The translations under genes and the position numbers were made by a program. Below are positions 8,948 through 42,085 of a stretch of DNA of 64,000 bases, in pieces. The stretch is from IMG/VR virus record IMGVR_UViG_3300021594_000641, positions 64,001-128,000 of that record; one strand, given 5' to 3'. The DNA comes from a virus. The notes under the pieces are model-generated. The model saw nothing but the letters and a program-made list of their open reading frames with translations, was not told the origin of the DNA and searched no databases. Positions within the stretch are counted from its first letter, which is position 1; each line of letters starts with the position of its first letter.

Positions 8948-9346
8948 TTAGTTAGCGGCCAGGTGTTCAGCGATAGCTTGGTGGTACACGGCCACGGCTT
9001 CTCTGACGTTAGGATTTAAAGCTAGATTGGCTGCGGCTGCCTTTACCAGACTTTCTTGCTGGGCTGACTTAACCTGAGCTTCGTTACCTAGGCTCGAGGG
9101 ATTAAGTACGCCTTCAAGGTTCTGAGCGGCTGCAGTAATCAGGCTGCTGTGAGCGCTGGCTTGCTTGGCCAGTTCCTGTTCCTGAATGCTAGTAATGCTG
9201 CTAGCAATTTTTAGAAGTTGTGCAACTTCTTCTTCAGTCTGAGGAACAATGCCGTAATCGCTTGCCAGCTTCTCTAGGAAGACAGGCACATACACTTCCT
9301 GCATGAGGAAAGCATGGGCAGCTTCTGGAGTAGCGTTGGTGGACAT
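8948..9346 (-). CDS. Probable head protein with K-x-A motifs
   Basis: 132 aa directly after the capsid gene; AKQAS, VKSAQ, VKAAA. Confidence 0.6.
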   Translation of the reverse strand: MSTNATPEAAHAFLMQEVYVPVFLEKLASDYGIVPQTEEEVAQLLKIASSITSIQEQELAKQASAHSSLITAAAQNLEGVLNPSSLGNEAQVKSAQQESLVKAAAANLALNPNVREAVAVYHQAIAEHLAAN

Positions 9347-9370
9347 CTAAGTTGCTCCTTTCTTTGCACG

Positions 9371-9402
9371 ACAGGGTAGCGGCGGTTAAGCCGCTACCCT
9401 GT
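9371..9402. other. 13-bp hairpin after the capsid gene, without a U-tract
   Basis: ACAGGGTAGCGGC-GGTTAA-GCCGCTACCCTGT. Confidence 0.75.
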
Positions 9403-9413
9403 TACGATGCGGA

Positions 9414-10346
9414 TCAAGCGAAGTCGGCGCGGGCCAGAGAGTTGGTGTTGCCGATAGCGCCACCAATTGTCTCGTAAGCAAAGAACTCAAGCATGTAAGC
9501 CTTACGCTCGATGTACATTGTGGTGTCTTCGAGGACGTAGGACTTGCCCATGAACTTGGGATCAGCAAACAAGTACATTGAGTCGCTGGGGACCAAGTCT
9601 TGCTTGATGGTGATGATCCAGTTGGCGTTCATGAAGTTCTGCTCAGACCAGCCGTTCTTGAAGACGTCCTGGCTGAAGTCACCACCCATTTCTTCACGAC
9701 CAAACTTCATGATCTCGCGGATCGTGAGGTTGTTCAGAAGAACTGTGCCGGTTTCTAGGCGGCTGATGGTGCGGGGCAGAATCTTGAAAGCCTCTTGGAG
9801 GTTATCACGAGTGATACCGCCGTAGAGGGTTTCCCACTGAACAACGCCGGAGTTGGTGTTGGTGGCGTCGGCGGAGCCGCCCAAGCCAGCATCAACAGAG
9901 GCCAAGAACTTGCGGTCTTCTTCAGCCAGCATGTCCTTGATGGAGTTGTCAGAAAGAACCTGACGGATGTCGATGTAGTACGTCCGTAGTTCGTCAACGT
10001 CCTTGGTGAACCGAGGGGTGACGATACGATCGAAGCTAACGCGATAGCGCTGGCCGCGAATGTACAGGTTCATTGGTAGGGTGGCGAAGGGGATGCTGAT
10101 CGCGGCGGGGGAATCCGGCTCGCGGTCAACAATCTTCACGGGCTTGTCGGTATCAACCTGACGATCGAGATCGTCATTGCTGATCTGGACGGGTGGAAGG
10201 ATTCTGCGGTAGAAGCCTTCTTCACGCATCCTGTACCGGGTGAAGTCATTAACAGCGTCAAGTGCGCGCTTTTCCATGCCTGGGGTTTCCAGGTAGGACA
10301 TGAAGGTCTCGTTGCGCAGCTTGACATCTTCGCTAACTGATGCCAT
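9414..10346 (-). CDS. Major capsid protein (compact HK97 fold)
   Basis: 310 aa, AGGAG RBS, codon style of a highly expressed gene. Follows the scaffold/decoration genes; MREEGFYRRILPP...FDRIVTPRFTKDVDEL...AYETIGGAIGNTNSLARADF. Confidence 0.8.
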   Translation of the reverse strand: MASVSEDVKLRNETFMSYLETPGMEKRALDAVNDFTRYRMREEGFYRRILPPVQISNDDLDRQVDTDKPVKIVDREPDSPAAISIPFATLPMNLYIRGQRYRVSFDRIVTPRFTKDVDELRTYYIDIRQVLSDNSIKDMLAEEDRKFLASVDAGLGGSADATNTNSGVVQWETLYGGITRDNLQEAFKILPRTISRLETGTVLLNNLTIREIMKFGREEMGGDFSQDVFKNGWSEQNFMNANWIITIKQDLVPSDSMYLFADPKFMGKSYVLEDTTMYIERKAYMLEFFAYETIGGAIGNTNSLARADFA

Positions 10347-10382
10347 GTCTAAATTCTCCTGCAGTTACCTTGGGGTTAAGAA

Positions 10383-10961
10383 TTAGTTACCAGTCTTGCC
10401 GGGTTTGTAAACGGGCCAGAACGCCAACACGGTGTTGCGGTCAGACTGACGCTTACGAGGAGCGCGGCTTACAACCCCTACAATCGCTGTGGGGTTGGTG
10501 CTGCTGCTTAGCGAAGATGAGTTTTCCAGAGTTATGACGCTCTGGTTTGTCAAACGACCACCGGTTGTCTGGTTGCTGTTGCTAGCAACAGCGCGCAGGT
10601 AATCGTTAGGGTAGTAAGTCTGAGCGGTGTCGAACTCGGTTGTTTCGAGTTCATAAGCGCCCTTGGCTACCAAACCCGTCAAGTTACCGTCAGGTCCGAT
10701 GGGATACCAGAGAGCTCCGCCGTTTCCGTTGGAGTCGCCAGAATTAGCCACATCGCTATCGGTACTGTTCTGCAGCAAGAAGATAGGCATCTGGGAACCC
10801 AGAACACCCATTTCAAACTCACCGTCGTTGTTCAGGTGAACGCAACGACCAGCGTAAGCTGTGATCGTGACGTTGTCGCTGAGCTTAGCGGTGAAGTCCA
10901 GGGCGGCCATGTGGAACCAGCCCTTAACCGCATCCAAGGTGTGAGCAAACATCTGAGCCAT
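10383..10961 (-). CDS. Probable capsid decoration/stabilising protein
   Basis: 192 aa beta-rich protein directly upstream of the capsid gene (GAYELETTEFD..TYYPNDYL...IVGVVSR). Confidence 0.6.
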   Translation of the reverse strand: MAQMFAHTLDAVKGWFHMAALDFTAKLSDNVTITAYAGRCVHLNNDGEFEMGVLGSQMPIFLLQNSTDSDVANSGDSNGNGGALWYPIGPDGNLTGLVAKGAYELETTEFDTAQTYYPNDYLRAVASNSNQTTGGRLTNQSVITLENSSSLSSSTNPTAIVGVVSRAPRKRQSDRNTVLAFWPVYKPGKTGN

Positions 10962-10985
10962 GTCAAAAACCTCCTAAGGTTAGAA

Positions 10986-11369
10986 TTAACCGTTAAGACC
11001 AAGAACTTCATCGAACCTCAGATCGCTGGCGCGGGCCTGAGAAGAACGCAGGCCAACGTAAGGAGAAGGGGCTGAAGCCTTCTTTTCCTGCACGGCATGG
11101 CCTAGCTGCCGTGGCCTAATGGTGCGATTGGTGTCAGCGGTCTTCTCAAGGATTTCCAGCACTTTGACTGGGTCCTTTAGAAGGGCAGCGCACTTTTCGC
11201 GATCTTTGGGATCAATCCTCTCATGGGCGACTAGGGCGTCGACCACGGCGGGGATGAGCTCAGATGCCTTCTTAGTGGCAGCTTCGCTCTGCTTGATCAG
11301 CTTATCGGCTGCGTCAAGAGCAGCGGCGCTGCACTCGACATAATCAACTACTGCAAGAAGATTGCTCAT
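10986..11369 (-). CDS. Small head protein with K-x-A motifs
   Basis: 127 aa in the head operon; TKKAS, EKTAD, EKKAS. Confidence 0.6.
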   Translation of the reverse strand: MSNLLAVVDYVECSAAALDAADKLIKQSEAATKKASELIPAVVDALVAHERIDPKDREKCAALLKDPVKVLEILEKTADTNRTIRPRQLGHAVQEKKASAPSPYVGLRSSQARASDLRFDEVLGLNG

Positions 11370-11389
11370 GATTACCTCCTAGTTTCGTA

Positions 11390-12670
11390 TCAACCAACGA
11401 TGTCAGCGATGCATTTCTTGATCTCTTCGCGAAGTTGCCGTTGTCCAGCAGTCTTAGCATCAGAGATTCTGAATTTGCCGCTTTTCTGCCTGGCTTTGGC
11501 GGCTTTCATCAAAGTCACAATTTGGTTATTGGACTTGTCAGAAGCCATCTTTGGAGCAGCGCCCATTTCAGGAGGCATAGCCCCTGCACCTTCGCCGCCA
11601 GCAGCCGCTTGCATGATCTCTTCTGGGCTTACACCCATTTCAGCCAAAGCTGACAAGAGTTCATCTACAGCTGCTTGGTCACCACCAGGAACTTCGGCAG
11701 AACCGGCTTCGGGACCTGCTTCTTCGCCTAGCCCACCGGCCATAGCGGCCATGTCGGCATCAGTTAGACCAAGGTCACCGCCGGCTTCGTGAGACTCTTC
11801 GCCGCCTGGAGCGTGCTCAGCAGTCTCCTCAGCGGGGCTCTCCGCAGCTTCGTGCTTTTCTGATTCTTCTGCGCTCTTTACTAGCTGGCGATTAAACTCA
11901 GCTACATAAGCACCAGTCAAATCAGCGGCTTGAAGAGCCCCTCTGATGATATTTTCTGAAGCGGTCTTGAAGAACTCTTCAATCTCGGCTTCGTTGGCTT
12001 CGGCAGGCTGGCCTGCTTGAACAGCTTGGTCGTAACCTACAGCTGCTGCAGTCTTAGCCGCTTCTTCCTTAGTTTCTTTTTGTTCCGTTACCCCTTTCTT
12101 TTTTTTTAAGAGGGGAAAGTCGGCAGAATCAATTTTGCCGTTCTTGTTAGCGTCAATCTTATGCTGATCGCCAACTAATTCAGATTGCTTGGTCAAAGCA
12201 ACTGAAATGTCAGCAATAAGAGCGTTAGCCTTCTTCTCAGTCAAAGACTTTAGCTTTGAGAAGTTCATTGAGCTGTACTTCTCGCCGTCTTCGGTCTTGG
12301 CTGGATGGCTTGTGCCTGGGTCTTCCTTTTCACCCTTGTAGTCGTCTTCGTGGGCTGGGTCTTCGCCAGTCGAAGTAGACTTTAGACCAACATCAAACTG
12401 CTGGTCTTCTTGGTCTGGTGTTGAGTCGGTAGCGGAATCAACGCCGCCGCCAGGAACCTGTGCTTTTACGTCGGCGGTGTTCTCAGAAGAACGAGTGCCT
12501 TCGTGAGCGTCGGCGGTTTGATCGTCCACGCTCTTAACAGGATGGCTGGTTCCGCCTTCGTAGCTACCAGCTTCGGTGTTAGCTTCAGCTTTCTTTTTGC
12601 TAGCTGCAGCCTTCTCCTGCTGTCCTTCTACTTCGGCCAAGAAAGACCTTAGCTCGTCAAATAAAGCCAT
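11390..12670 (-). CDS. Prohead scaffold/core-like protein
   Basis: Acidic, low-complexity protein between protease and capsid genes. Start at MALFDEL (GAGGAG RBS) preferred over 12697. Carries KIDANKNGKIDSADFPLLKKK and many K-x-A sites. Confidence 0.6.
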   Translation of the reverse strand: MALFDELRSFLAEVEGQQEKAAASKKKAEANTEAGSYEGGTSHPVKSVDDQTADAHEGTRSSENTADVKAQVPGGGVDSATDSTPDQEDQQFDVGLKSTSTGEDPAHEDDYKGEKEDPGTSHPAKTEDGEKYSSMNFSKLKSLTEKKANALIADISVALTKQSELVGDQHKIDANKNGKIDSADFPLLKKKKGVTEQKETKEEAAKTAAAVGYDQAVQAGQPAEANEAEIEEFFKTASENIIRGALQAADLTGAYVAEFNRQLVKSAEESEKHEAAESPAEETAEHAPGGEESHEAGGDLGLTDADMAAMAGGLGEEAGPEAGSAEVPGGDQAAVDELLSALAEMGVSPEEIMQAAAGGEGAGAMPPEMGAAPKMASDKSNNQIVTLMKAAKARQKSGKFRISDAKTAGQRQLREEIKKCIADIVG

Positions 12671-12779
12671 TTCAGGACTCCTCGCTAATGGATACAAACC
12701 CGCCGTTCGGTAATGTATACCCTCTATTTAAAATTATCCAAATCACGCACTAAGTCTGCAAGAGTAAATCTTGCAGATT

Positions 12780-14258
12780 TCAAGATAGGTAATTGGAGCG
12801 TACGGCGTGCTCCTTATACCAACTGAAATTCGGTTCGCTCTTGAGCTCATTTAAGAAATATAGCTGGTAAGCAGCATAACGTCTAGCTAGTTGTTCGCTA
12901 TCGTCTGTAGCTGCTGTTTTAACCAGTTCAGAATTTCTAGCTCTAAAACTTGCTTGCTTAGTATTTCCAGACAAAACTTGCTTGAAAATACGCTTTTCAA
13001 ACAAATTAGGTCTTATCGACTTTGAAACTGCTACCTTGTGAGCCCATTGCTGAATCTTTTCGCTTGGGAAAGCCATAGACGGGTCACAAGTTCTTTCTTC
13101 CAAACACTGCTCAAAACTTGCAGAATCACTTATAAGTCTAGAAAAAACGCCTGGAAGCCTTGCTTCTACGTCTTTATAGGACGCAGACTTCAAAATTATG
13201 CTGTTTGAGTCTTTTCCTACCAGGTCTAGCCAGTCTTTTACGCTCAAAGCCACTTTTTCGCGGCTCAAAGCCCTCCAAATCTGCACTCCGGCCATTTTTC
13301 CCATAGGAACGTCGGTCAAAGCCGTTTTCTTATCGTCAAGAATGGTTGAGTCCTTCTGAGACACTCCAAACTTGCCGTTTTCTAGAGAACTTTCCATTTC
13401 TGCAAGTTCGTAGGCAAGTTTGAGCAAAGAAGCTGACCTTTCAGGCATATTTTCAAAACACAGCCTGAAAGGAGCTGTCACACCCATTTCTTCAGCTAAA
13501 AGAGCTCCTCCAGCCACTTGACTGGCGTTAGCCGCCTTCATGTGGCCAAAAACGTAAGCAATTCTGTCGGCGGGTCGATAAACGTCAGAAATATCAAACC
13601 AAGTAGGGTCAGGGTTGTCCACATGCAGTACATGACCATCAGCGGCCACTTTTGTCAGGTTGTTATAGCATCCGCCGTACTTACAGTTTCTTTCTGTGCA
13701 GTAAGTAGACCTGTTAGCGGCTTTGTTGCCACAACCGCTGCAAACGTCAAAAGGAACCCTACAAGCCATGGAAACGCCCCAGTCATTTGAACCGGAGGCT
13801 ATTTTTTGCATTTCCTTGTCAGCAACCAGGCCTTTGTTGCGGTCAGCTGCTTCTTTAGTGCCGTTAAGCGCTACAAGCAGCTCAATACGCTTCATCGCCT
13901 CGTTGAACGCCGACATTTTGATAATGCCATAACTTTTCGCTTCATCTTTATTTTGGTGGTTGCGGTACCACCTAGCGTGTTTGACGAACGTAGGATGGTA
14001 TTTGCGGCAAGTCGCAGACTTGAAACCGTCTCCGTTACGGTTTGGACCGTATGACTCCGTAGCTCCAATAGCAATAAGGTGAACGAGCTGCTCACCTGGC
14101 GCGACGTTGACATCGCGAAGTTTATCAGCGAATTCATGCCCAGCTCTTTTTATAAATGACTTAAGATCGTCGCCGCGAAGCCCGCGACTTGATTGCTTTA
14201 CCATCTCTACAGCTGGTACGCCAAAGTCTTGGGAGTCTGGAGAAGTTATCTTTATCAT
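12780..14258 (-). CDS. Prohead maturation serine protease with a Cys-rich insertion
   Basis: Candidate catalytic His (YRNHQN) and Ser (GVSMAC); CSGC..C...C..C insert; FDISDVYRPADRIA; upstream of scaffold and capsid genes. Confidence 0.65.
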   Translation of the reverse strand: MIKITSPDSQDFGVPAVEMVKQSSRGLRGDDLKSFIKRAGHEFADKLRDVNVAPGEQLVHLIAIGATESYGPNRNGDGFKSATCRKYHPTFVKHARWYRNHQNKDEAKSYGIIKMSAFNEAMKRIELLVALNGTKEAADRNKGLVADKEMQKIASGSNDWGVSMACRVPFDVCSGCGNKAANRSTYCTERNCKYGGCYNNLTKVAADGHVLHVDNPDPTWFDISDVYRPADRIAYVFGHMKAANASQVAGGALLAEEMGVTAPFRLCFENMPERSASLLKLAYELAEMESSLENGKFGVSQKDSTILDDKKTALTDVPMGKMAGVQIWRALSREKVALSVKDWLDLVGKDSNSIILKSASYKDVEARLPGVFSRLISDSASFEQCLEERTCDPSMAFPSEKIQQWAHKVAVSKSIRPNLFEKRIFKQVLSGNTKQASFRARNSELVKTAATDDSEQLARRYAAYQLYFLNELKSEPNFSWYKEHAVRSNYLS

Positions 14259-14267
14259 GGCATCCTC

Positions 14268-15749
14268 TTATTCGTCAAAAAGTGGGAATCCGCCTTTAGT
14301 TGTGGCTCTCTGTATGTCGCCAACTATGGCTTCCAGCTTGTCTCTGCTTAAAGGCTTGGTGTAAAGACCATACCAGTCTTGTTTAGGGTTTTGTTCAAGA
14401 ATATTTTGCAAGAAACTTCCCTGCTCTTTAGCTTTTTCAGGCGTTATTTCCCCACTAGCCAGCTCTGCCTCGGTTCTACCTTTATAAATATTCAATAAAT
14501 TATGCAATTGCCGCATTCTTTCTTGATCTGGACTAGCGTCAACCAGGCTGGGATTAACAGCAGTTGTTCCAGCTAGGGTTAGACCTATTAGCCCAGCTTT
14601 GCTTCCAGCATTTCTAGTTAATCTTGTAATTAAAGGCTCAGACACGTGCGAAGACGACGGCTGAGTGGCTTTTGAGTCTACTAACCTTTGTTTGTGTGTA
14701 GGAGCTCGTCCGCCATAAGCAACGTACTCTCCTACAGTTTGAGGTAGCCGTAATAATGATCCTGCGTTTATTTTAGGGCTTGGAGCTTTAAGATAGCTTT
14801 TTACTAAACCCTCCCTTTCTCCAGAGCCTACTTCTGATAAGCTTTTTACAAAACTTTGTCTTTGAGTTTGATCCATACTTTCAAAGAATTCAGATAATGG
14901 CGAACCGCCCAGCGCTGTTCTTGGATCTTCAACCAATTTTTTCATTTGTTTAGGGTCTGTTATAAATTTTCTAAAACCGCTAGACGGGGATTCCATGTAT
15001 GAAACAAATTCTTTTATTCCTTTATTAAAGTTTGCTTCAGTATTAGGGTTGTTTGGTATTGCACTAGTGGCTGGAAGAGCGTTTTTAAGCGCGGGCCAAA
15101 AAGCCTGTAAGTTTTTCTGAAAGTCAGGCCTAAACATGTATTTCATGTTAGCCTGGCCTCTGTTGAAACCTTCAACACCTTCACCAATGGTCGCAGCGCC
15201 TCCAAACAAGGCAGAACCTAAAGCTGCGGTTGGAGCCAACCTTGCTCTAAAAAAGTTATTAATTATGTTTGTATCCCTTGAAACATCTCTAGCTATTGTT
15301 GCTGTGTCTCTAGCTATTGAGCTATTAGCTGGTCTAGCAGAAGGTAAAATATTTTCTTCTGCTTTCCTTTTTAGCTCTTCAGCAGATTCTGAAGACCTGT
15401 CATACAAAGCTCCGCCGCCGGCACCTAGAGCTGAGCCAAGAAGCCCGAACAAGGCGGCGTCAGAAATAGCCCGCATTTTCTTTTTCTTATGCCGGCTAAG
15501 TCCCAGCAAACCGCCGCCCAAAGCGCCTGCTCCCAGTCCAAGAAGAGCTCCTGGCAATACACTGCTTTTTGCTGCAGGCTTGTTGTCTTCTGCTTCTTTT
15601 GTTAAACCAATTTTTTCATAATAAGCAGCGGCGGAAGTTCTAACACCGTCAGCCCAGTCTGGATAAACTCCGGCTTTCTCCAAAGTGTTAGATTTTTCAG
15701 CAAAAGCTTTCTTTTCAAAAAGAGCTTCTACCGCTTGCTTTACTTCCAT
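14268..15749 (-). CDS. Putative internal head protein with glycine-zipper hairpin
   Basis: 493 aa; K-x-A-rich N-terminus; GALLGLGAGALGGGLLG-basic loop-GLLGSALGAGGG. Confidence 0.6.
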   Translation of the reverse strand: MEVKQAVEALFEKKAFAEKSNTLEKAGVYPDWADGVRTSAAAYYEKIGLTKEAEDNKPAAKSSVLPGALLGLGAGALGGGLLGLSRHKKKKMRAISDAALFGLLGSALGAGGGALYDRSSESAEELKRKAEENILPSARPANSSIARDTATIARDVSRDTNIINNFFRARLAPTAALGSALFGGAATIGEGVEGFNRGQANMKYMFRPDFQKNLQAFWPALKNALPATSAIPNNPNTEANFNKGIKEFVSYMESPSSGFRKFITDPKQMKKLVEDPRTALGGSPLSEFFESMDQTQRQSFVKSLSEVGSGEREGLVKSYLKAPSPKINAGSLLRLPQTVGEYVAYGGRAPTHKQRLVDSKATQPSSSHVSEPLITRLTRNAGSKAGLIGLTLAGTTAVNPSLVDASPDQERMRQLHNLLNIYKGRTEAELASGEITPEKAKEQGSFLQNILEQNPKQDWYGLYTKPLSRDKLEAIVGDIQRATTKGGFPLFDE

Positions 15750-17146
15750 CAGATAACTCCAAGCGTAGGAGACCCTTCGACTTTTCTCTGTAAGGAAGAG
15801 TCGGTATCGCGGTCCTTAAGCTTAGACTCAATACTTAGCAGCTGGTCTATTTCGTAAGGGTCTACGTTATTACCAGAAGCTAGCCTTTTTCTAAGTATTG
15901 ACCGCACTAAAGACTCTTGAGTTGAAGCCCTTGGAGCCAACTCGCTAATTTGGTTGTAGTGATCCAGAACTGCGTCAGGATCATAAGTGCTTATCACATC
16001 GTCGTTTGCCATCAGATCTGTAAGCATCGACTGAGCTTCTATGTTGCGAAGTGTCGCTGCCTGTATTGGATCTGATGTTCTCTTGGCCCAGCTTAGTCTG
16101 GCGTCTGCTGTGCTAGGCACAGACGTAGACATAGCCAGCTCTTTGCCAGCCGCTGTAGCCCCTGCCGCAGGAGAAAGAATATAACCTGCGGCAAGAGCTC
16201 CTAGATTAGACTTCTTTTCAAACGACCCCAGGACCCCAAGGCTCGTTGCTTGGTCCTGGGGTACGACAAAAGGGAGGAGGGTTTCCTCCGACAAGGCAGA
16301 AGCTTTCTTTTGAAATTCTTCAAAAGAAGCCTGCTTTTTCAAATAGTCTTCTGCGTTTTCCAAGCATTCTTTTACTAGGCTGTAAGGCTGCTTGGAGAAT
16401 TCGACCAAAGAAAAGAATTCTTTTCCTGATCCGGCTTGCTTGGTCAAAGACCTGTTTCTTTTCTCAAGTATCGAGAACAGGGCTTCAGCTTTCTTGCCGA
16501 AGATCCTGGTCATGTTGCCTTTTACGCCAAGGAAAGGCTCGCAGTCAGTTTTTCTAAAGTATTCGCCAAGCTTTGTTATAGATCCAACAAGCTTGTCGTG
16601 TGCGGCGGAAGCTACACCTCTTTGGTTATCCAACTCTCTGGCTGCGTCTAGCATTCGGCAGTGAGCTTTCTTCATAGCTTCCACAGGATCTGTGGGAAGA
16701 GGCTCAACGCCAGTGATAGCTTTACCGGCTTTTGTCACAAGAGGTGGCAGCTCAAGTTTTGCGGCTGCCGCTTTCACGTGTCTCTTGTACCAAGTAGGCG
16801 GAGCAGAATATTCTTCTGACACCGCTGTCTCGGTATGAATTTGACTAGCCGTCTTTACAGACTTGGGAAACATTTTCCCAAGAATGTTTTCAGCGTCGGC
16901 TAAATCAAACTCAGCGGCTTTTTCGAATATATCGCCGCCTATTTTTCTTTGAGTTTCGGCTCTGCCTGTATTGAACGCGTTAACCATAAGGTTAACGTGT
17001 CCAGCGGGTAGAGACCTTTCAGAAGCCACTTTTACAATAGCTTCGTCTGGATGCGATCCGTCCGCAACCATCTCAGCTACTTTCTCAAGTGCTTCAGTTA
17101 TGTTTCGCTCAGCTTCTTTGCTAAGCCTATTTATGGCCATTATCAC
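15749..17146 (-). CDS. Putative internal head protein, K-x-A rich
   Basis: 465 aa; SKEAE, EKAAE, VKTAS, VKAAA, TKQAG, KKQAS. Confidence 0.6.
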   Translation of the reverse strand: MIMAINRLSKEAERNITEALEKVAEMVADGSHPDEAIVKVASERSLPAGHVNLMVNAFNTGRAETQRKIGGDIFEKAAEFDLADAENILGKMFPKSVKTASQIHTETAVSEEYSAPPTWYKRHVKAAAAKLELPPLVTKAGKAITGVEPLPTDPVEAMKKAHCRMLDAARELDNQRGVASAAHDKLVGSITKLGEYFRKTDCEPFLGVKGNMTRIFGKKAEALFSILEKRNRSLTKQAGSGKEFFSLVEFSKQPYSLVKECLENAEDYLKKQASFEEFQKKASALSEETLLPFVVPQDQATSLGVLGSFEKKSNLGALAAGYILSPAAGATAAGKELAMSTSVPSTADARLSWAKRTSDPIQAATLRNIEAQSMLTDLMANDDVISTYDPDAVLDHYNQISELAPRASTQESLVRSILRKRLASGNNVDPYEIDQLLSIESKLKDRDTDSSLQRKVEGSPTLGVI

Positions 17147-18077: not shown

Positions 18078-18517
18078 CAGCCTACGTCCACATCACCACC
18101 GATTACCAAATCCCAGGTAGCGTCACCGCTGCCTACAGGAGTGATTTGGACATAAATTTTCTTAACTGGCAATGTGTATGTTCCGTCTTGGTTACGGAAT
18201 GCGCGTCCAAAGTTGTCTGATATTTCCATAAGCTCTCCGGCTGTTCCGGCAGTTGGAGGAAATACCACATACATGTCTGGAGAAGCTATGCACTTGGCTG
18301 GACCTGAAGGTCCGTCAGAATCTCCAATAGAAGATGAGTTAGGCTGACAAGCGGCCAGAGAGTTATAGACGGTTACTGTAAAGTTAGCCGTCGATCCTCC
18401 AGTCTGCTTGACCAACAACCTCTTTATCTGAGCTTCTGGAGGAAAGCCTATCTGCCAGCAGGTTGTTTGCCCGCATGGCGCACTTAGGCTGCAGACCCTA
18501 CGTTCGTATATACGCAT
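18077..18517 (-). CDS. Hypothetical beta-rich protein
   Basis: 146 aa; its stop overlaps the start of the next gene. Confidence 0.6.
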   Translation of the reverse strand: MRIYERRVCSLSAPCGQTTCWQIGFPPEAQIKRLLVKQTGGSTANFTVTVYNSLAACQPNSSSIGDSDGPSGPAKCIASPDMYVVFPPTAGTAGELMEISDNFGRAFRNQDGTYTLPVKKIYVQITPVGSGDATWDLVIGGDVDVG

Positions 18518-18530
18518 CGTTAGCTCCTAA

Positions 18531-31640: not shown

Positions 31641-31682
31641 CTTAGTATCCTCAGGGTTAGAGCTTTAAAAACTACTAAAAAA

Positions 31683-32763: not shown

Positions 32764-35700
32764 CTGTTTAGAATTACCACTTTCTGATCAGGCCCAATTT
32801 CTCCTGACTTATAAGCCCTGATTGCGTCGGCTTTTGTGGCAAAATACCGTTCTGGTTTATTAGACACGAAGGCCGTTGCCTGATAAAGACCGCCTTGATA
32901 CTCGTTCTTTGGCAGCTGGTGAACTTTAAACGTTTTAGTTGATAGCAAATTCTTGCTAGGCAACATCTTTTCAAGAGCGTCTTTGACAGCTCCATCAGAC
33001 ACAGGAACGTGGTAGTTCATGGTGTCGCCATCAAAGTCGGCACCAAATCCCGTAACCACAGCTGGGCATAACTGCATTGTTTCGTTGTCTACAAGTATTG
33101 GCTTGAAGGCCATAACGCCATACCTGTGAAGAACTGGAGCTCTGTTGATAATCACAGGCCTGTCGTTCATCTCTTGCTGCATAGCTGTCAGAGCTAACTT
33201 GTCTTTGTTCTGCACAAGTTCTGCTGCCCTAATCGGAGAAACTCCTTGTCTGGCCAGTCTTCTTACAATAAATGGTTTATATATTTCCCAAGCTTTGTTG
33301 ATAGGAATGCCTACTTGATCTAAATCCAGATTGGCGTTTGGAGAGATAACGCCTCTGCCAACAACGTCTACTGTCGTGCTTAGCAACTTGCGCTGCATAA
33401 CAGAGAACTTAGGATTATCGCCAAACACGTATTTGAGAACGCCTTTGACTCCGCGCTCTTGGTTCTTGGGACTTATTGGATCACCAAGTCCCGTGACTGC
33501 TTTGAATGACCTATATAGAGCTAAGCGCTCATCTCCAACTTCGTTGGATATTCTTCTGGTTTCTTTCAAAGCCTGGTTAGCTTCAAAAGCTTCCTTATAC
33601 AGGTAATTAGGATCAGCCACCAAAGGTCTGTCGCCAGATCCCATAACAGCCACAGGGCGGAATATTGGTGGAAGGACTGGAATCTTGTCCATCATCCAAT
33701 CTTTTGGATGCATCTTCAGCCTTTGGGTGTGTTTCAGAATCGCCCAGCGCTTTAGAGCTGCATCTTTCGATGACTTCTTCGAGTTTCTCCATTCTGTTTC
33801 TGCTCTCTTTGTTGCCTCGTTGATGTCAATTCTTTCCAAAGACTTCTTTATAGCCTCTGGACCGGACATTTCATTGAACGTCTCTTTTCCAGAAAGTATG
33901 GCGTTGAACCTGTTTTGAGTCAGGCCGAGTATTCTGCGAATAGGCTCTTCCATGACAGGATTGGGCAAAGGCTCAGCTAACTTTATGTAGCTCCATCTAT
34001 TTCCTCCATGTCCTCCTGTTGTTGATTCGTCAAACAATCCTCCCTTTATGGGCTTCAAGCCTTCCTTCCAGTCCACAGTTTCAGGAGAAGTTATTTCCCT
34101 TCCTGCAGCTAATTGGTCTATATCCTTGTTGGTCAAGGCCATGATCTGAATTCTTGGCCCAGTTCTTATTGGGTTTATGCCTGCAGACCTGAGTTGTTCA
34201 AAGAACTTATGGTATACGAGAGGAATTCTTGGCTCAGGAGGAGTTCTACCGGACATGAATGCTGCCCAGTAGTCTTGATTTTTTTGTCCTCTAATAGCTC
34301 CGGCATCGGTAAGAACATCCAAAGCTCCATGGGAAAGAAGGGCGTTGTTGTCAGCAAGGCTTACGCGCTTGCTTCCCATTGGACCGCCTTTAGCTGGAGA
34401 TTCCTCAGAGGTGTAAGAACCCAAACCACGACCAGAGCCTTTGCTCTCAGCCATGTGGTGCAACTTCATGAAGAAGCGATTTCCTGTGAATACGTCCCTT
34501 ATTTTTGTGCTGTCTATTGGATCCAGTATGTCTTCCCTGTCAGACATGTTGTGCTTGGATAGTTCTTTTTTGGCGAACTCTATCATGTCTTCTATGTCAG
34601 AAAAGTCTTTTACGGCGTATCTCTTACCGTGCTTTTCAGCTATTTTTCCCAGAACCGCTTCTACCATCTGACCAGGATTTGTTCTGGAAATAATGCCCAA
34701 GGGGTTTACCAGAACCTCAAAAGGTCTTCCGTCGCTATCTACAGGCATGTGGTTGTCTGGAACTATCTCAGAAATTACTCCCTTGTCTCCATACCTTCCA
34801 GAAAGCTTGTCGCCAACCTGCATTTGGGAGTAGCTCTTTACTGTTACGACTACGCCTTTCCTGGTTTTCTCTACGTCTGTAACCACTCCTTTGTCGTGAT
34901 GATCCCAAGTTACAGTGCTGTCTGAAAAAGTAGGAGCCTTGCCTCTGGTTATTTGATTGTGCGCCAGCTCTTTCTGCTTAACCTGAAGAATAAGAGGAGT
35001 ATCGGCATTTACTATTGAGCCCTTCTTGATTACTCCGTCCTCATCCATGTTGTCCAGGATGGCTTTGTCGTAAGTGCCTGGGAACATGGATATAAAAGTT
35101 TTCTTTCCGTATTTGGCGTTATCCTCAAACTCCACGTCGTTTTGATACATGTGTTCTGAGGAAAGACGCTTGGCAGCTGCCTCAGATATAACTATGGCGT
35201 CTTCAAAGTTCTGACCTTTATAGGGAATGTAGGCAGTACGCATGTTCAGACCCAAAGCCGTAGCGCCTTTGGCGTCTGTAAAGTTAGACCTGGCAATAAG
35301 AGTATTCTTCTTTACCATGTCTCCAGGCATAACTACAGGCGTGTTATGAAGATAAGTCTTTCTGTTGTAAGGAAGGTTGTCATGTATTTCTTTAACATGC
35401 ACCTTGCCATCAGATCCCTTTATGTGAATCTCTTCTGGAGTAACCTTAACAACTTGTCCTTCTACGTCGGAATGTACCGCGCCCATGTACTTGCCGTATC
35501 TTTCCTCATACGACTCGTCATCAGGACCTGGAACACCTGACTGAACAAACGGGGATTCGGCGTTTGCAATAGGCAAAGCCTGTGTAAGCATTCTCGCGCC
35601 CATCATCACGCGCTGGCCTTTGATGGTGGATTTGAGAGGAATCATGTTTACCAGAGGATTGAACGAGTCTTCCATGTGTGGAAGAACGTATTCAACCTGG

Positions 35701-37196
35701 TTCTTTGGAACATATTTGATTTTGCCGCTAACCAAAGCAGCCACTACGTTTGAATTCTTGTTTTCAAGCTCTTTGGGGAAAGCTATTACAGAGTCAGCAA
35801 TATCCTGAGGAGTTTTCCATACAGGTTTATTTCCATTCTTTACGTCAAGAAACTTGGCATAGACCTTTCCATCCTTACCTTTCATGGAAGATTGAGCCAA
35901 ACGGCTATCAACACCTACCTTTAGAGATTCAGGAGTGAGTAGAGGATCGACATAACCAAAGTGAGAAGGCTGAACCGACCTGGCTTCGTCTGGAACAGCG
36001 TCCAGAGAAGGAATACCGCCTTCGCCAAGACGACTCATTCTGGTCAGCTGGCCAAGAATCTCAGCGTTGTTCACTTCTTCAGAAGGCTGTCCAAGTCCAG
36101 AACTTGTAATTGCAGCATTCAAATGCTTGCCAAGGAAGTTAGTTCCCAGAGGACTGAGATTATTTTTGAATGTGGCTTTCCACAGTAAAGGCCTCATGAC
36201 CTTGTAGGCTGAGCGCATCTTCTCAGAAAACAGATCCTCAGGACCCATGATCATCTGATAGGCCATGGCATCGCGGTCGTCTGGATCTGCTTCTCTCTTG
36301 TTTATGGCCACGATCTTCTTTGTGGCATCAATAATGGCATCTACTGACAAGTTTTTATACGGTTTGCCTAGTGTTCTTGACGTTACAACACCATCTAAAT
36401 GCATGTTCTCAAAGAAGTTACGAAGCTTTTGATACTTGCTTTCCTTGTCTCCTTCCTGATCAGCCTTCCTAAGAGTTCTTTGGATTAGCTTTTCCAGAAC
36501 CTGCGGGTCGTTTTGCCTGGCGTTTACTTCGTACAGCTCGTTTCCCCAAGAGTCTCTAAGCTGTTTGTCTGTTGCACCCATGGCTTTGAGCAGGGGAAAC
36601 AGAGGCATGGACGCTTGGCCCATGGAAACTTTGAATACGCCGCGAGCTGGATCTAGAGAATATCTGTGAGAAACACCTTTACCAGGAAGTACGTTAACGT
36701 GAGATTCTATTTCACCGTTCTGCTTTTCTCTCGTATATATCCCTGGGCGCAATCTGGCTTGGTTGGCAAGTGTGTATTCAACACCATTAAGTACGAAAGT
36801 GCCGCCATTTGTCATCTTGGGAATACGAGCCATGGTTATGGCTTTTTCATCAACGATGTTTCCCTGCGTGTCCTGAAGCTGCCATATGCCCTGAAGCCTT
36901 CTTTCAAGGCTTTCTTTTCTAAGAATGGCTTTCTTTCGTTCTTTTATGGAAGGAACTGGGCTATCTAGATAGCTAGCGCTGACTAGCTTTAGCTTATACC
37001 TATTGTTTTCAAATACAGGAATTTCTTTCGTAGCGTTTAAAACACCGTCGTATATGGAGTTACGAGTCTTATCTATGTCAGAAAAAGACCGCATCTCTTC
37101 CTGAGGTTTATTTAAAATAGGCGCGGCCAGATTGCCAAGAACTCCTGCAGGCTTGTTTGGTCCCGCAGGAGTTCCACCGTCTAGGACAGAAGCCAT
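32760..37196 (-). CDS. rpoBC: Multisubunit RNA polymerase: beta fused to the N-terminal catalytic half of beta-prime
   Basis: Beta motifs: IPKMTNGGTFVLNG, SHFGYVDPLLTPES, RVMMGARMLTQALP, GQNFEDAIVIS, GDKLSGRYGDKGVI, NPLGIISRTNPGQ, RFFMKLHH. Beta-prime motifs: IPVLPPIFRP, RKLLSTTVDVVGRGVI, NRAPVLHR, GADFDGD. Confidence 0.95.
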   Translation of the reverse strand: MASVLDGGTPAGPNKPAGVLGNLAAPILNKPQEEMRSFSDIDKTRNSIYDGVLNATKEIPVFENNRYKLKLVSASYLDSPVPSIKERKKAILRKESLERRLQGIWQLQDTQGNIVDEKAITMARIPKMTNGGTFVLNGVEYTLANQARLRPGIYTREKQNGEIESHVNVLPGKGVSHRYSLDPARGVFKVSMGQASMPLFPLLKAMGATDKQLRDSWGNELYEVNARQNDPQVLEKLIQRTLRKADQEGDKESKYQKLRNFFENMHLDGVVTSRTLGKPYKNLSVDAIIDATKKIVAINKREADPDDRDAMAYQMIMGPEDLFSEKMRSAYKVMRPLLWKATFKNNLSPLGTNFLGKHLNAAITSSGLGQPSEEVNNAEILGQLTRMSRLGEGGIPSLDAVPDEARSVQPSHFGYVDPLLTPESLKVGVDSRLAQSSMKGKDGKVYAKFLDVKNGNKPVWKTPQDIADSVIAFPKELENKNSNVVAALVSGKIKYVPKNQVEYVLPHMEDSFNPLVNMIPLKSTIKGQRVMMGARMLTQALPIANAESPFVQSGVPGPDDESYEERYGKYMGAVHSDVEGQVVKVTPEEIHIKGSDGKVHVKEIHDNLPYNRKTYLHNTPVVMPGDMVKKNTLIARSNFTDAKGATALGLNMRTAYIPYKGQNFEDAIVISEAAAKRLSSEHMYQNDVEFEDNAKYGKKTFISMFPGTYDKAILDNMDEDGVIKKGSIVNADTPLILQVKQKELAHNQITRGKAPTFSDSTVTWDHHDKGVVTDVEKTRKGVVVTVKSYSQMQVGDKLSGRYGDKGVISEIVPDNHMPVDSDGRPFEVLVNPLGIISRTNPGQMVEAVLGKIAEKHGKRYAVKDFSDIEDMIEFAKKELSKHNMSDREDILDPIDSTKIRDVFTGNRFFMKLHHMAESKGSGRGLGSYTSEESPAKGGPMGSKRVSLADNNALLSHGALDVLTDAGAIRGQKNQDYWAAFMSGRTPPEPRIPLVYHKFFEQLRSAGINPIRTGPRIQIMALTNKDIDQLAAGREITSPETVDWKEGLKPIKGGLFDESTTGGHGGNRWSYIKLAEPLPNPVMEEPIRRILGLTQNRFNAILSGKETFNEMSGPEAIKKSLERIDINEATKRAETEWRNSKKSSKDAALKRWAILKHTQRLKMHPKDWMMDKIPVLPPIFRPVAVMGSGDRPLVADPNYLYKEAFEANQALKETRRISNEVGDERLALYRSFKAVTGLGDPISPKNQERGVKGVLKYVFGDNPKFSVMQRKLLSTTVDVVGRGVISPNANLDLDQVGIPINKAWEIYKPFIVRRLARQGVSPIRAAELVQNKDKLALTAMQQEMNDRPVIINRAPVLHRYGVMAFKPILVDNETMQLCPAVVTGFGADFDGDTMNYHVPVSDGAVKDALEKMLPSKNLLSTKTFKVHQLPKNEYQGGLYQATAFVSNKPERYFATKADAIRAYKSGEIGPDQKVVILNS

Positions 37197-38218: not shown

Positions 38219-38563
38219 TCACAGTCTCCTCTGTACGTTCTTTGGAATGATGCCGACTACTTCGCCCCATTCCAGATGGATTCTTATCTCTTTACCGTCT
38301 TCAGATATGAGCTTAGTCCTATCTATTAGACGGAATAACCCGTTGACTATCTTATCCAGTATCTGTGTATATTCTTCTAAATCTGAAGAATTACCAAGAT
38401 CAAATACCTTCACATTCGCATTAACGCCGTGAGGTATATTGTCGTACTCTTCCTGAGTTAGATTTGGCGTGGCGTTTCCCATTAAGGGAAAGCCTTGCGA
38501 AGTTACAGCTCTTGAATCAGCGCGATACTTAGCCCCAACACCAAACTGATTCAGTATCTTCAT
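38219..38563 (-). CDS. Hypothetical protein
   Basis: 114 aa, tightly packed in the operon. Confidence 0.65.
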   Translation of the reverse strand: MKILNQFGVGAKYRADSRAVTSQGFPLMGNATPNLTQEEYDNIPHGVNANVKVFDLGNSSDLEEYTQILDKIVNGLFRLIDRTKLISEDGKEIRIHLEWGEVVGIIPKNVQRRL

Positions 38564-39024
38564 ATACCGCCGCTTTCTTTAAGCCTTCTAAGTTTGTTCT
38601 TCATCCTGATCTTAGCCTTCTGAATAGCTAAGTCGTTTATTACTTCCTCGGCTTTTGCTTCTTGCTCGGCCAAAGGATCTGAGCGCATGTCAGCCAAGGC
38701 TTTACCAGCCAGAATACCAGAACCTGTGGCTGCTATGCCTGTAGCTGCCAGTATCTTTGGAGCGTTATTGAGTATCCAGTCAGAGTATCCAGTAGCAGCC
38801 AAAGCCGCACCTGCGTTCTGAACTGGAGTAGAAGCTCCAAGAGTGTTTAAAGTTATGCCTGTGCCAAGACCTTTAGCTAGCCTTGACCCAAGAGTTTCGT
38901 TGTCAGCTTGTTTCTCAAGCTTATGAATGGCAGTCTTAACTCGCTCGTTCATCTGAGCAAGAGTTAGACCTTCGTCCAGACATCTACTTATAAAAGCTAA
39001 CTTGAAACTGGTCAGAGGATCCAT
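38560..39024 (-). CDS. Putative internal head protein with Gly-rich helices
   Basis: 154 aa; VKTAI, EKQAD. Confidence 0.6.
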   Translation of the reverse strand: MDPLTSFKLAFISRCLDEGLTLAQMNERVKTAIHKLEKQADNETLGSRLAKGLGTGITLNTLGASTPVQNAGAALAATGYSDWILNNAPKILAATGIAATGSGILAGKALADMRSDPLAEQEAKAEEVINDLAIQKAKIRMKNKLRRLKESGGI

Positions 39025-39390: not shown

Positions 39391-39407
39391 GATAGCCCTT
39401 TCTATAC

Positions 39408-40397
39408 TTAATCTAGCTTAAGCACTCTGTCTAAAACCCTGAAGTCGTTTACCGACTTACACGTCTCATCCCTTCTATCAGTATCGTCTGAACTCTGGCT
39501 AGACAACATCAGTGTATCACGCCCTCGAACCACAAGCACTCTCAAACTAAGTATCGTATCTCCGTTCTCAGAGTGAACGTCATAAGCTGTTACAGGTAAT
39601 TTTCTATCATTTAAAAAAATATCATTTGAGCCATTCTTTCCTAAACTTATTACCCATCTGTTTGATTCAGGATTTGACGTGTCAGCTCTTGTTAGTTGAA
39701 CCAGAGAACTTTCAGGCAATGGCTCTTGAGGATAATAGATCTCATCCTCATACATCTCCGAGTATCCATACCATGGGTTGTACATGGTTGTTCCTGGAAT
39801 CTCTCTATCAGGAACATCTACTTGTTCTATTCTTTCTCTTTCTTCCATTACTCCCGACATATCCAATAACTGATTTATCAAAGCATTCCTTTCTCTTAGA
39901 ACTTCTCCTCTTTCCAATACTAACCTTGAATACAGTCCTTGGTTTCTTAGAGGAGCAGCTATTCTTGCCATTAGGGCTAATTCTTGGTCTATCTTATTCT
40001 GTAGCAAGTCTAACCATGCTTTTCTGTTTCTGTTGTTTAAATACCTTACTGAAGAGCGTCTATTTGATATCGAGCCTTCTGGTCTTTCCATATAGTCTTT
40101 TATTGCTTCTTGAGATAGTTCTATCATTGCGGCTATATATTGTCTGACTGCTGTGCCTAGAGTTGGATTTATTTCATCTAACTGAGCATATGTTGCAATA
40201 TAACTTTCTCTAAGAAGCTTTAATTGTTCTTCCATGAATTCTTGAACTGTATATACGCTTTCTTCTAAATCGAATGATCTTGCTGAAATAGAAAAGCCGA
40301 ATGGAAGTATGTACGAATGCTGCCTTATATCTTCTGAGGCGTTTTCGTTCACTTCTCTTTCCATTCTTATTGCTTCTTCGTGAGAAGATTCATACAT
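39408..40397 (-). CDS. Hypothetical Arg/Glu-rich, Lys-poor protein
   Basis: 329 aa, GGAGGAAGG RBS; composition unlike its K-x-A-rich neighbours. Confidence 0.65.
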   Translation of the reverse strand: MYESSHEEAIRMEREVNENASEDIRQHSYILPFGFSISARSFDLEESVYTVQEFMEEQLKLLRESYIATYAQLDEINPTLGTAVRQYIAAMIELSQEAIKDYMERPEGSISNRRSSVRYLNNRNRKAWLDLLQNKIDQELALMARIAAPLRNQGLYSRLVLERGEVLRERNALINQLLDMSGVMEERERIEQVDVPDREIPGTTMYNPWYGYSEMYEDEIYYPQEPLPESSLVQLTRADTSNPESNRWVISLGKNGSNDIFLNDRKLPVTAYDVHSENGDTILSLRVLVVRGRDTLMLSSQSSDDTDRRDETCKSVNDFRVLDRVLKLD

Positions 40398-40416
40398 GGA
40401 TCCTTCCTCCTATACC

Positions 40417-41499
40417 TTATTGACCAAACAATCCTGGTATTACTGCCTTTAGTGCTCCAGCGAACATTCCTGTATTCTGTAATGTTCTTTGGGCTGTTGG
40501 TGTCAGACCAGCTAATGCTCCAAGCACCTTTCCGCCTATATATGCCTGGGATAATCCAGCGCCCATTCCAAGTCCTACTCTTGAAATGTCGAATGGAGAT
40601 ATGATTCCCATGTTTCCTTTTGATTGGTTTGCTGCTTCTGTTAGTCCGACTGTTGCTGTTCTTAGTGGTATTGAGGCAAAAGGATCCATCATTACTGATC
40701 TGTTGAATGCGTCGACAGGAATGGTTGGAAGGTTTTCTATGCCTGATTGGGATAGAGATTGCTTTTGCATATAGTCATCTAGCATTTGTTCTGATTCTTT
40801 GTTTGGGTGTATATCTTTTATTCCTTCAAATGCTCTATTGATTGCTTCTGAGATTTTTTCTTGAGGTTTTTCTTCTGGCTGAGAACCCCAGAACACATTT
40901 GGCTTTACCCAGGCATTCCACTTACTCTTATCCTTGTCGTCCCAATTCCTCATTCCTACAACTCCTAGATATGCTGGAATTGCTGCTCCGCCCAAAGCTC
41001 CAATGACTCCAAGAGTCTTGTTGAGCCTGTCTCTTTTTACAAACCTTTCTGGAAATAGTCTTTCTAGCAGACTTCCTGTCAAATATCCCGCGCCGCCTCC
41101 TAAAGCTCCGCTAGTTAACATTGAGAATAAAGGGCTTGTTCCAAACTCTCCGAAGTTTTGATTGAAGGAGTTTGGAGCCAAGTTCATTAGCTTGGGAATC
41201 GTTGAAAGAGTATCTTTTGCTTTCAATGGCTCTGCTGCTCTCTTTACGAATATCCATCTCTTGTTTTCAGGCAGCTTTGTTTCCCTATGACCTATTTCAA
41301 ATCCTTTCTTCTGCATGTTCTCTACTGTTGATAGGCAATCTGTAGTTAGTAATCCTGGATTGTCTGCATCGAACCAGACAACTGAATTGTCTTCAAGGGC
41401 GCTAGAAACCTTTTCGTGAAATGGCTTAAGAGACTTAATTGCTTCCTTGACCATTTCTGGAAGGAGCAAGTATTCCATCTTTAGAAGAGTGTCGGTCAT
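40417..41499 (-). CDS. Putative internal head protein with glycine zippers
   Basis: 360 aa; VKEAI, VKRAA; GALGGGAGYLTG...LGVIGALGG; GLGMGAGLSQAYIGG. Confidence 0.6.
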   Translation of the reverse strand: MTDTLLKMEYLLLPEMVKEAIKSLKPFHEKVSSALEDNSVVWFDADNPGLLTTDCLSTVENMQKKGFEIGHRETKLPENKRWIFVKRAAEPLKAKDTLSTIPKLMNLAPNSFNQNFGEFGTSPLFSMLTSGALGGGAGYLTGSLLERLFPERFVKRDRLNKTLGVIGALGGAAIPAYLGVVGMRNWDDKDKSKWNAWVKPNVFWGSQPEEKPQEKISEAINRAFEGIKDIHPNKESEQMLDDYMQKQSLSQSGIENLPTIPVDAFNRSVMMDPFASIPLRTATVGLTEAANQSKGNMGIISPFDISRVGLGMGAGLSQAYIGGKVLGALAGLTPTAQRTLQNTGMFAGALKAVIPGLFGQ

Positions 41500-41500
41500 C

Positions 41501-42085
41501 TTAGTTTCTCGAATAGAAGGCTGAAGGCATGTGTGATTGAAGCATGTGTATTCTGAAGTTTGTGGGTTTGTGCGTTAATCCCACAATACCGTTCTTTGGT
41601 TCGTCGCTTATGTCGAATTCGTCTGGAGCTGCTGATACAAGTGCTCTAAGTATTATATTCTTCCTTATATATTGTTTCTTGTCTGATAGCTCTTTGGCTG
41701 TTATCAGGCTTTTTAGTGTTTCGCTCTTTGCTGCATACTTTAGGGCTGAAGGCTCTTCTTCTAGTCCAGCCAACACGGACAGTTTGTTTGCAAGATAGTT
41801 TGAGCCTAAGGCTCCAAGTATTGCTCCCAAGGCTTTTCCTGGAGTTACAGAACTATCTGTTGATCCTGACAAAGCTCCTCCTACGCCATAACCTCCTATT
41901 GCTCCTGTTCCTGTTGCCAGTCCTTTCATGCCTCCTCGAATAAGGTCTAGTAGCCTTGTGTATTTGTTCTTGCCTTTTCCGCCTGTTGGTTCAGCTAGGG
42001 CTGATCCGGCTATTGTGGTAAGTCCAAGCAAGCCCGCAGCTGGACTAACTGGAAAAATATTTGCGGGTTTTGACTCTTTGCTCAT
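41501..42085 (-). CDS. Putative internal head protein with glycine zippers
   Basis: 194 aa; GLATGTGAIGGYGVGG, GAILGALG, LKYAA. Confidence 0.6.
   Translation of the reverse strand: MSKESKPANIFPVSPAAGLLGLTTIAGSALAEPTGGKGKNKYTRLLDLIRGGMKGLATGTGAIGGYGVGGALSGSTDSSVTPGKALGAILGALGSNYLANKLSVLAGLEEEPSALKYAAKSETLKSLITAKELSDKKQYIRKNIILRALVSAAPDEFDISDEPKNGIVGLTHKPTNFRIHMLQSHMPSAFYSRN

Follow-up and report, generated by a model that had tools for sequence, protein, structure and literature searches.

Lys-x-Ala as a candidate prohead-protease cleavage code in the head-gene block of an uncultured phage and its relatives

The prohead-protease rules described for phages are directed to Glu, and in phiKZ and SPN3US one protease (gp175 and gp245, respectively) acts on many head and ejection proteins, whose propeptides are mostly N-terminal (PMC10052503). 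In herpesviruses, pUL26 is cut after Ala at a release and a maturational site, the latter cut freeing the scaffold from the capsid protein; the maturational site (M-site) of pseudorabies virus (PrV) removes 37 amino acids (aa), and some herpesvirus proteases also have internal inactivating sites (PMC4498786). Here we describe the motif Lys-x-Ala (K-x-A) in a window of 64,000 nucleotides, bases 64001-128000 of a single 189,675-bp contig of an uncultured phage (IMG/VR record IMGVR_UViG_3300021594_000641). The motif accumulates in the proteins of a head block at 8948-42085, and we consider it likely that it is a prohead-protease cleavage code, cut between K-x-A and a following Ser or Ala, with the short leaders that it terminates serving as capsid-targeting tags. 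Literature searches for Lys-x-Ala together with prohead or capsid, and for prohead-protease motifs, returned only Glu-type systems and no Lys-x-Ala rule for a phage. A sequence-only reading of the window had drawn attention to the motif, and the strings that it quoted were all found (MEKRAL in the capsid protein; EKAAA, KKKAE, AKTAA, FKTAS and VKSAE in a scaffold-like protein; MKAAN, LKSAS, TKQAS and VKTAA in the protease; GKSAE in a helicase).

A K-x-A starts within residues 1-40 in 23 of the 30 head-block proteins. Composition-matched shuffling of whole proteins gave an expectation of 8.0 ± 2.2 proteins with an N-terminal K-x-A (maximum 14 in 400 shuffles), and local shuffling of the N-terminal segment gave 11.6 ± 2.2 (maximum 19); about 15 of the 23 hits are above chance. 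Counted as sites, the head block has 36 N-terminal K-x-A against 15.0 ± 3.2 by shuffle. The rest of the genome, outside the block, is at background (29 of 166 proteins against 28.4 expected; z 0.1, compared with 6.4 for the head block), and none of A-x-K, K-x-x-A, A-x-x-K, KA, AK, R-x-A, E-x-A, [LI]-x-E or A-x-E rises above background in the same head-block N-termini. As a guard against post-hoc choice of the motif, all 1168 two-residue patterns with gaps of 0-3 were scored; K-x-A came first (z 6.6), the largest z of any pattern in 1500 shuffles being 6.1, and V-K came second, which suggests Val at P4. The count against shuffles that the sequence-only reading had asked for thus came out in its favour. 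Its statement that tail genes lack this feature also held (N-terminal K-x-A in one of eight putative tail genes at 1-8947, 1.3 expected), but PHROGs gave no name for the putative tail genes at 1884-8933, and 'tube' and 'sheath' are labels only. The three K-x-A genes that it had added at 50-52.5 kb exist, but as a group the genes at 42086-64000 are at chance level (6 of 27 against 5.2).

Over whole proteins, K-x-A density is raised only in 8948-21410 (68 against 31.7 expected, 2.15-fold); in 21411-42085 it is at chance (50 against 53.0, 0.94-fold), and the signal there is therefore purely N-terminal. Among individual proteins, the protease encoded at 12780-14258 has 16 sites against 4.3 in composition-matched shuffles (z 6.0), followed by the products of 15749-17146 (11 against 4.9), 8948-9346 (5 against 0.9) and 18531-21410 (13 against 6.6).

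The cultured relatives of this phage, Salmonella phage Arash and the Vibrio phages D69, D148 and D181, are distant, with 31-32% identity in the capsid protein and 32-36% over the catalytic domain of the protease. Together with Arash (L001), the relatives gathered were IMG/VR loci L002-L012 and G001 loci L013-L017. The N-terminal excess was repeated in a contig with a 73%-identical protease (20 of 28 proteins against 7.5-8.9; reached in 0 of 1000 shuffles) and in Arash (8 of 15 against 3.7; 9 of 1000), and the Glu-ending motifs of the T4 type ([LI]-x-E) and the phiKZ type (A-x-E or [ASG]-x-E) showed no excess over shuffles in Arash, the 73% relative or the window. Conservation was scored as both residues of the pair being kept in pairwise alignments, for K-x-A and for twelve control pairs:

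Close relative 1: mean identity 69%, K-x-A kept 77%, control pairs 25-56%
Close relative 2: mean identity 65%, K-x-A kept 68%, control pairs 28-54%
Middle-distance relative: mean identity 40%, K-x-A kept 34%, control pairs 0-28%
Arash: mean identity 32%, K-x-A kept 27%, control pairs 0-35%

K-x-A is thus kept far above the control pairs in the three closer comparisons and less clearly in Arash, where one control pair, K-x-G (35%), was retained more than K-x-A (27%).

The protease gene lies in the head-assembly module, near the genes of the scaffold-like and the major capsid protein. The order protease, scaffold-like protein, two small genes, capsid protein is the same in Arash (gp222 to gp226) and in L002-L008. 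The genes and sites of this part of the block are:

12780-14258, minus strand: predicted prohead (capsid-maturation) protease, 492 aa, 16 K-x-A sites, fold match of an AlphaFold2 (AF2) model
11390-12697, minus strand: acidic scaffold-like protein, 435 aa, nine K-x-A, between the protease and capsid genes
10986-11369, minus strand: small head protein, 127 aa, four K-x-A, matching the C-terminal part of phrog_2976 'head maturation protease'
9414-10346, minus strand: major capsid protein, 310 aa, phrog_2522, homologous to Arash gp226
10263-10271, minus strand: capsid leader site K26-R-A28
8948-9346, minus strand: small protein, 132 aa, five K-x-A, four of them conserved in L002 and L004
15749-17146, minus strand: head-assembly protein, 11 K-x-A

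The capsid site stands in the same column in all five lineages (as KRA, KQA or KEA), and 118 of 120 close homologues have K-x-A there, with R, K, T, N, V or Q as the middle residue. The AF2 model of the capsid protein, built with 25 close homologues, reached a predicted local distance difference test (pLDDT) score of 36, at which the site could not be placed on the HK97 fold. In the acidic scaffold-like protein most K-x-A sites are conserved in L002 and L004, and the sites of the 127-aa protein are conserved in relatives too. At least eight sites of the 15749-17146 product hold their column down to an orthologue of 29% identity; this protein is probably a degradable core or scaffold component.

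In the AF2 model of the protease (pLDDT 85), a low-confidence linker (aa 243-248, pLDDT < 50) joins a compact catalytic domain (about aa 16-244) to a helical C-terminal domain (aa 250-492). An exhaustive VIA-align search matched it to the varicella-zoster virus (VZV) protease (1vzv; Z 9.8, root-mean-square deviation (rmsd) 2.9, 118 aa), T4 gp21 (5jbl; Z 9.6, rmsd 3.4, 137 of 165 aa), the human cytomegalovirus (HCMV) protease (8j3s; Z 7.4, rmsd 3.2, 121 aa) and the protease of KSHV (Kaposi's sarcoma-associated herpesvirus; Z 5.2, rmsd 3.4, 96 aa), with unrelated folds at 5.2 or below. Foldseek against the PDB gave no match to the model at E ≤ 0.001 (probabilities 0.69-0.80, E > 0.2), Pfam had no family at E ≤ 0.01, PHROGs offered only phrog_2774 'unknown function', and PDB sequence searches with the single sequence and with a 44-sequence profile found no match. 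On the strength of structure prediction, the protein is assigned the fold of the assemblin/prohead serine protease superfamily. A search of 1.84 billion proteins with its N-terminal 315 residues retrieved 2511 cluster representatives at E ≤ 1e-3, and the family is very large and almost wholly uncultured.

In the alignment of 44 family members K37, H101, S163, D171, C173, C176, C187, C192, D222, S224 and D231 are invariant. H101 precedes S163 by 62 residues, the order found in assemblin and gp21, and these two would be the catalytic residues. Inteins interrupt homologues at two conserved positions, one after about aa 78 beside an invariant N73/N75/D77 motif and one at S163-M-A/C166 (the slash marking the insertion); many homologues are 600-1300 aa long from intein insertion (P0009, P0015, P0020, P0003), and some carry both inteins. 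The second position agrees with a place for S163 in the active site. The invariant cysteines C173, C176, C187 and C192 (CSGCGN...YC....C) form an insert of the protease domain at aa 173-192 (13680-13745) that is probably a zinc ribbon.

The load of K-x-A is a property of the family, with a mean of 12.9 per protein in 110 intein-free members against 3.5 by shuffle (A-x-K 2.8 and K-x-x-A 4.5 in the same members). Around these sites Ser (2.9-fold) and Ala (1.8-fold) are enriched at P1', Glu, Val and Thr at P4, and Leu and Phe at P5. Candidate catalytic codons and K-x-A sites, with column conservation in the 44 aligned members, are:

13770-13772, minus strand: Ser163 codon, candidate nucleophile, invariant
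13956-13958, minus strand: His101 codon, candidate catalytic residue, invariant
14142-14150, minus strand: N-terminal site K37-R-A39; K37 invariant, K-x-A in 86%, also in Arash
Site at aa 93: K-x-A in 84%
Site at aa 135: K-x-A in 70%
Site at aa 152: K-x-A in 68%
13530-13538, minus strand: K241-A-A243, candidate release site at the end of the catalytic domain, directly before the linker; 66%
Site at aa 280: K-x-A in 64%
Site at aa 408: K-x-A in 57%
12912-12920, minus strand: K447-T-A449, candidate maturational site, leaving a conserved 43-aa C-terminal tail; 73%

Evidence on the position of a cut comes from small modules that have been shuffled among these phages:

24496-27006, minus strand: polyprotein-like protein in which K-x-A at aa 8, 94, 104, 112 and 157 flank two small basic modules; Pfam DUF6321 at aa 19-86

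Three small basic modules vary in order among the phages, namely SPAWQ...RKWKCGS (DUF6321), KPGLWANIHAK...NWKKV and CWKGY..VPG...SC. In the window the first two are N-terminal in the 24496-27006 product and the CWKGY module is a 50-aa gene of its own (52336-52488) with its own leader, while in L004 (450-3344) all three stand together at the C-terminus of a 964-aa protein. The modules of the 24496-27006 product occur in another order in L004 and L012 (L012:19682-22543), always bounded by K-x-A. Every junction reads (E)-K-x-A and the module begins at the next residue (KSA/SPAWQ, KTA/APAWQ, KKA/SPAWQ, KEA/RCWKGY; slash at the module start), which is the pattern expected of protease-processed polyproteins and, as the modules start right after Ala, the best sequence evidence for a cut after Ala. 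Along with the excess in residues 1-40, these junctions bear out the earlier observation that the motif sits at the ends of N-terminal leaders and at domain borders.

Leaders of the same kind precede several proteins that are candidates for cargo:

18531-21410, minus strand: 959-aa virion protein, homologue of Arash gp218; 31-aa leader ending in K29-S-A31 (21318-21326)
22016-23506, minus strand: SNF2-type helicase (Pfam Helicase_C/SNF2); 18-aa leader ending in K16-S-A18 (23453-23461)
29142-32714, minus strand: five adjacent cargo genes with a leader in common, M-[AP]-[FIL]-N-x-x-x-I-x-x-V-K-x-A-x-x-K, and unrelated bodies behind it

The leader of the 959-aa protein is divergent, yet four lineages have K-x-A in the same column, with a conserved LGGDGND after it. 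That of the helicase diverges as well (SEIGKSAE, YLEHKQAA, CLEEKRAA) yet ends in K[SQR]A in relatives, and Arash gp217, the helicase homologue, has no leader and begins three residues downstream of the helicase K-x-A site; both gp218 and gp217 were detected in Arash virions (PMC10585845). A hidden Markov model of the five-gene leader, run against the six-frame translated genome, found no genes beyond the five on which it was trained (E 1e-8 to 1e-12 for these); related leaders stand on non-homologous genes of L009 and L012. One trait of a T4-type capsid-targeting sequence (CTS), a single leader on unrelated proteins with the protease motif at its end, is found here. Translation of 29142-29945 probably begins in truth at M25 (29873). 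Three lineages conserve the body of this protein, an array of GGAPPMDPAMM repeats rich in Gly, Pro and Met.

Further head-block genes with N-terminal K-x-A, and the two RNA polymerase (RNAP) genes of the block, are:

14268-15749, minus strand: 493-aa protein, K-x-A at aa 4, 13, 51 and 57
38560-39024, minus strand: 154-aa protein, K-x-A at aa 30 and 38 conserved in an alignment with L012, L009 and L016
40417-41499, minus strand: 360-aa protein, leader site K18-E-A20, second site at aa 86
21477-22007, minus strand: leader-like N-terminus, K10 and K17; plausible only, no clean orthologue alignment
23513-24445, minus strand: leader-like N-terminus, K10 and K16; plausible only, no clean orthologue alignment
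27003-28907: RNAP beta'-C half
32760-37196: RNAP beta/beta'-N fusion

The N-terminal and aa-51 sites of the 14268-15749 product are kept in its 26%-identical L002 orthologue, and in the case of the 360-aa protein L012 retains V-K-E-A and three lineages retain the aa-86 site. K8-L-A of the 154-aa protein was rejected as a site, as it belongs to a conserved domain. Also set aside were the sites of 17127-18077, K15-P-A of the RNAP fusion (absent in L012 and L016) and K6-P-A of 41501-42085; none is conserved and all are probably due to chance. Neither RNAP subunit has a conserved K-x-A leader, so that, if packaged, they would enter by another route. Cross-lineage conservation supports 13 substrates well at the level of sequence (genes starting at 8948, 10986, 11390, 14268, 15749, 18531, 24496, 29142, 38560 and 40417, plus capsid protein, protease and helicase). 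Four further candidates (29893, 30882, 31683, 32244) are plausible by their paralogous leader and two more (21477, 23513) by their N-termini, for a total of up to 19. The figure of roughly 20 packaged proteins given by the sequence-only reading was somewhat high and mixed cleaved with packaged proteins. Beyond the block, a strand switch at its end is followed by a ribonucleotide reductase gene (42228-45611); nearly all genes of the window are on the minus strand. Beside glycosyltransferase-like genes, the open reading frame at 62843-63796 begins with a long homopolymeric stretch of Ser and Thr, about 40 residues of which most are Thr.

Taken together, we propose that the phage's own serine protease (12780-14258), with its predicted assemblin/T4 gp21 fold, would recognise K-x-A and cut most likely after Ala, with Lys at P3, Ala at P1, a small Ser or Ala at P1' and often Val or Glu at P4. 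In the prohead, it would take the short N-terminal leaders off the capsid protein and the cargo (helicase, 959-aa virion protein, pore-like and low-complexity proteins), cut polyprotein-like cargo apart into its modules, chop the scaffold-like proteins and chop itself at the release-type site at aa 241, the maturational-type site at aa 447 and internal sites, the pieces leaving before DNA enters. The V-K-x-A leader of the five cargo genes probably doubles as a capsid-targeting sequence, and the scaffold and protease fragments are probably expelled, being cleaved not being the same as being packaged. The cutting itself, the bond that is cut and the targeting by the leader are all three things that we infer from sequence.

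Several points weigh against this proposal. For every member of the family the case for cleavage is indirect, about 8 of the 23 N-terminal hits are expected by chance, and several N-terminal sites (17127-18077, RNAP fusion, 41501-42085) are not conserved. Sequence methods (Pfam, and PDB searches with the single sequence and the profile) link the protease to no characterised protease, and its conserved sites at aa 80, 93, 135 and 152 lie within the folded catalytic domain and could be structural. The relatives share phylogeny and are not independent replicates. The only virion proteome, that of Arash, consists of gene tables without peptides, covering 116 proteins that include contaminants, and some motif-rich proteins have high coverage in it. 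The Arash preparations contained gp218 and the homologues of capsid protein, helicase and RNAP subunits, the RNAP homologues being the most abundant (PMC10585845). The 'structural proteome' (PMC10585845, Table 2) comprises 116 of 252 proteins, among them ribonucleotide reductases and RNA ligases. The preparation was probably not pure virions but contaminated with cytoplasmic proteins or proheads. Its coverage column is not literal (e.g., 100% coverage from two peptides) and was not used as evidence.

The same protease could read the same motif and cut another bond, K/x-A or the one before Lys, as the sequence data fix the motif and not the bond, and the shuffled modules and the leaderless Arash helicase localise the cut only to about three residues. 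We regard this as rather unlikely, since T4 gp21, phiKZ gp175/SPN3US gp245 and herpesvirus assemblin all recognise P3-x-P1 and cleave behind the third residue (PMC10052503, PMC4498786), conserved modules begin exactly one residue past Ala, and small Ser and Ala are enriched at P1' as in the Ala/Ser sites of herpesviruses; among the readings that include cleavage, these three points favour a cut after Ala. Alternatively, K-x-A may be a binding or targeting element that stays uncleaved, e.g., a helix-capping contact for scaffold, portal or protease C-terminal domain. The motif does lie within predicted amphipathic leader helices, the five-gene leader resembles a targeting tag, and cutting is something we infer; but such an element leaves unexplained the multiple sites at polyprotein module junctions, the load of the protease (12.9 against 3.5 in 110 members) and the site at the boundary of catalytic domain and linker, and a leader missing from one orthologue suggests a dispensable, removable part, all of which makes this account quite unlikely.

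K-x-A could also be a by-product of Lys/Ala-rich helices, through composition or structure, with no specific function of its own. Head-block N-termini are indeed somewhat rich in Lys and Ala, as seen in the higher expectation of the local shuffle (11.6 against 8.0). However, A-x-K, K-x-x-A, A-x-x-K, KA and AK remain at background in these same segments, K-x-A exceeds the family-wise shuffle maximum, its conservation is well above that of the control pairs in the three closer comparisons, and the 166 other proteins of the genome show no enrichment; with the control patterns, the family-wise maximum and the conservation all contradicting a compositional artefact, we hold this explanation to be highly improbable.

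A cleavage code, in our preferred reading, would combine traits of the known systems. With T4 gp21 the protease shares its predicted fold (Z 9.6, 137 of 165 residues), a P3-x-P1 tripeptide rule, a gene beside those of scaffold and capsid protein, and many sites in scaffold-like proteins and in the protease itself, and the short N-terminal leaders ending in the protease motif on unrelated cargo recall the CTS of T4 IPI-III and Alt. Unlike in gp21, Ala would occupy P1 and Lys P3, where T4 has Glu and Leu/Ile, [LI]-x-E shows no enrichment, similarity at the sequence level is absent, and a 250-aa helical C-terminal domain and the invariant four-Cys insert are present. As in phiKZ gp175 and SPN3US gp245, one protease would serve many head and ejection proteins in a large myovirus that packages a multisubunit RNA polymerase; unlike there, [ASG]-x-E is not enriched and the RNAP subunits have no conserved site. 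The herpesvirus assemblin precursor (pUL26/pUL80a) is similar in predicted fold (VZV Z 9.8, HCMV Z 7.4), in Ala at P1 with a small P1', and in the succession of N-terminal protease domain, linker and helical domain, with the motif at the domain boundary (aa 241). The site about 43 aa from the C-terminus (aa 447) resembles the PrV M-site, where 37 aa are removed, and internal sites within the protease domain are found in HCMV and KSHV too. It differs from assemblin in that P3 is an invariant Lys rather than of the Val/Leu/Tyr type and that the main scaffold-like protein is encoded by a separate gene, not as a nested in-frame product. The specificity common to assemblin and the phage protease may reflect convergence. 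A Lys/Ala-directed equivalent of the Glu rule, as first suggested, is the best reading of the head-block specificity, the conservation, the gp21/assemblin fold and the invariant His and Ser, its cleavage part staying conditional, but for cutting at Ala herpesvirus assemblin (x-x-Ala/Ser) is the nearest precedent, and not only the Glu-type enzymes of T4 and phiKZ that were named with it.

In Bacillus phage G (L018, JN638751 3137-31634), gp19 is a distant homologue of the protease with eight K-x-A against 2.5 expected, gp21 has seven against 3.0, the portal protein gp14 has the N-terminus MAKQAAS, and the capsid protein gp27 has none. The K-x-A code may extend to this cultured megaphage. Only tentatively, at somewhat less than an even chance, do we suggest that a code with Lys at P3 and a cut after Ala, together with short leaders, is in use throughout a very large and almost wholly uncultured clade (about 2500 protease clusters at 50% identity). 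If true, sequence alone could reveal the capsid-loaded and ejected proteome (helicase, pore-like proteins and polyproteins of small basic modules), leader plus K-x-A would be a portable tag for 'load into the capsid, then release', and herpesvirus assemblin would have its closest counterpart among phages in this layout of protease, linker and helical domain with release and maturation sites.

In this enzyme superfamily, the specificity of a Lys-x-Ala rule would be new, given that the T4 and phiKZ/SPN3US enzymes compared here cut after Glu, and it would bring phage and herpesvirus maturation closer to each other. In Salmonella phage Arash, a relative in culture, the prediction can be put to a direct test. 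Being simple, conserved and confined to head proteins, the motif would allow the proteins that are processed in or loaded into the capsid, including enzymes delivered into the host, to be predicted from sequence for thousands of uncultured large phages.

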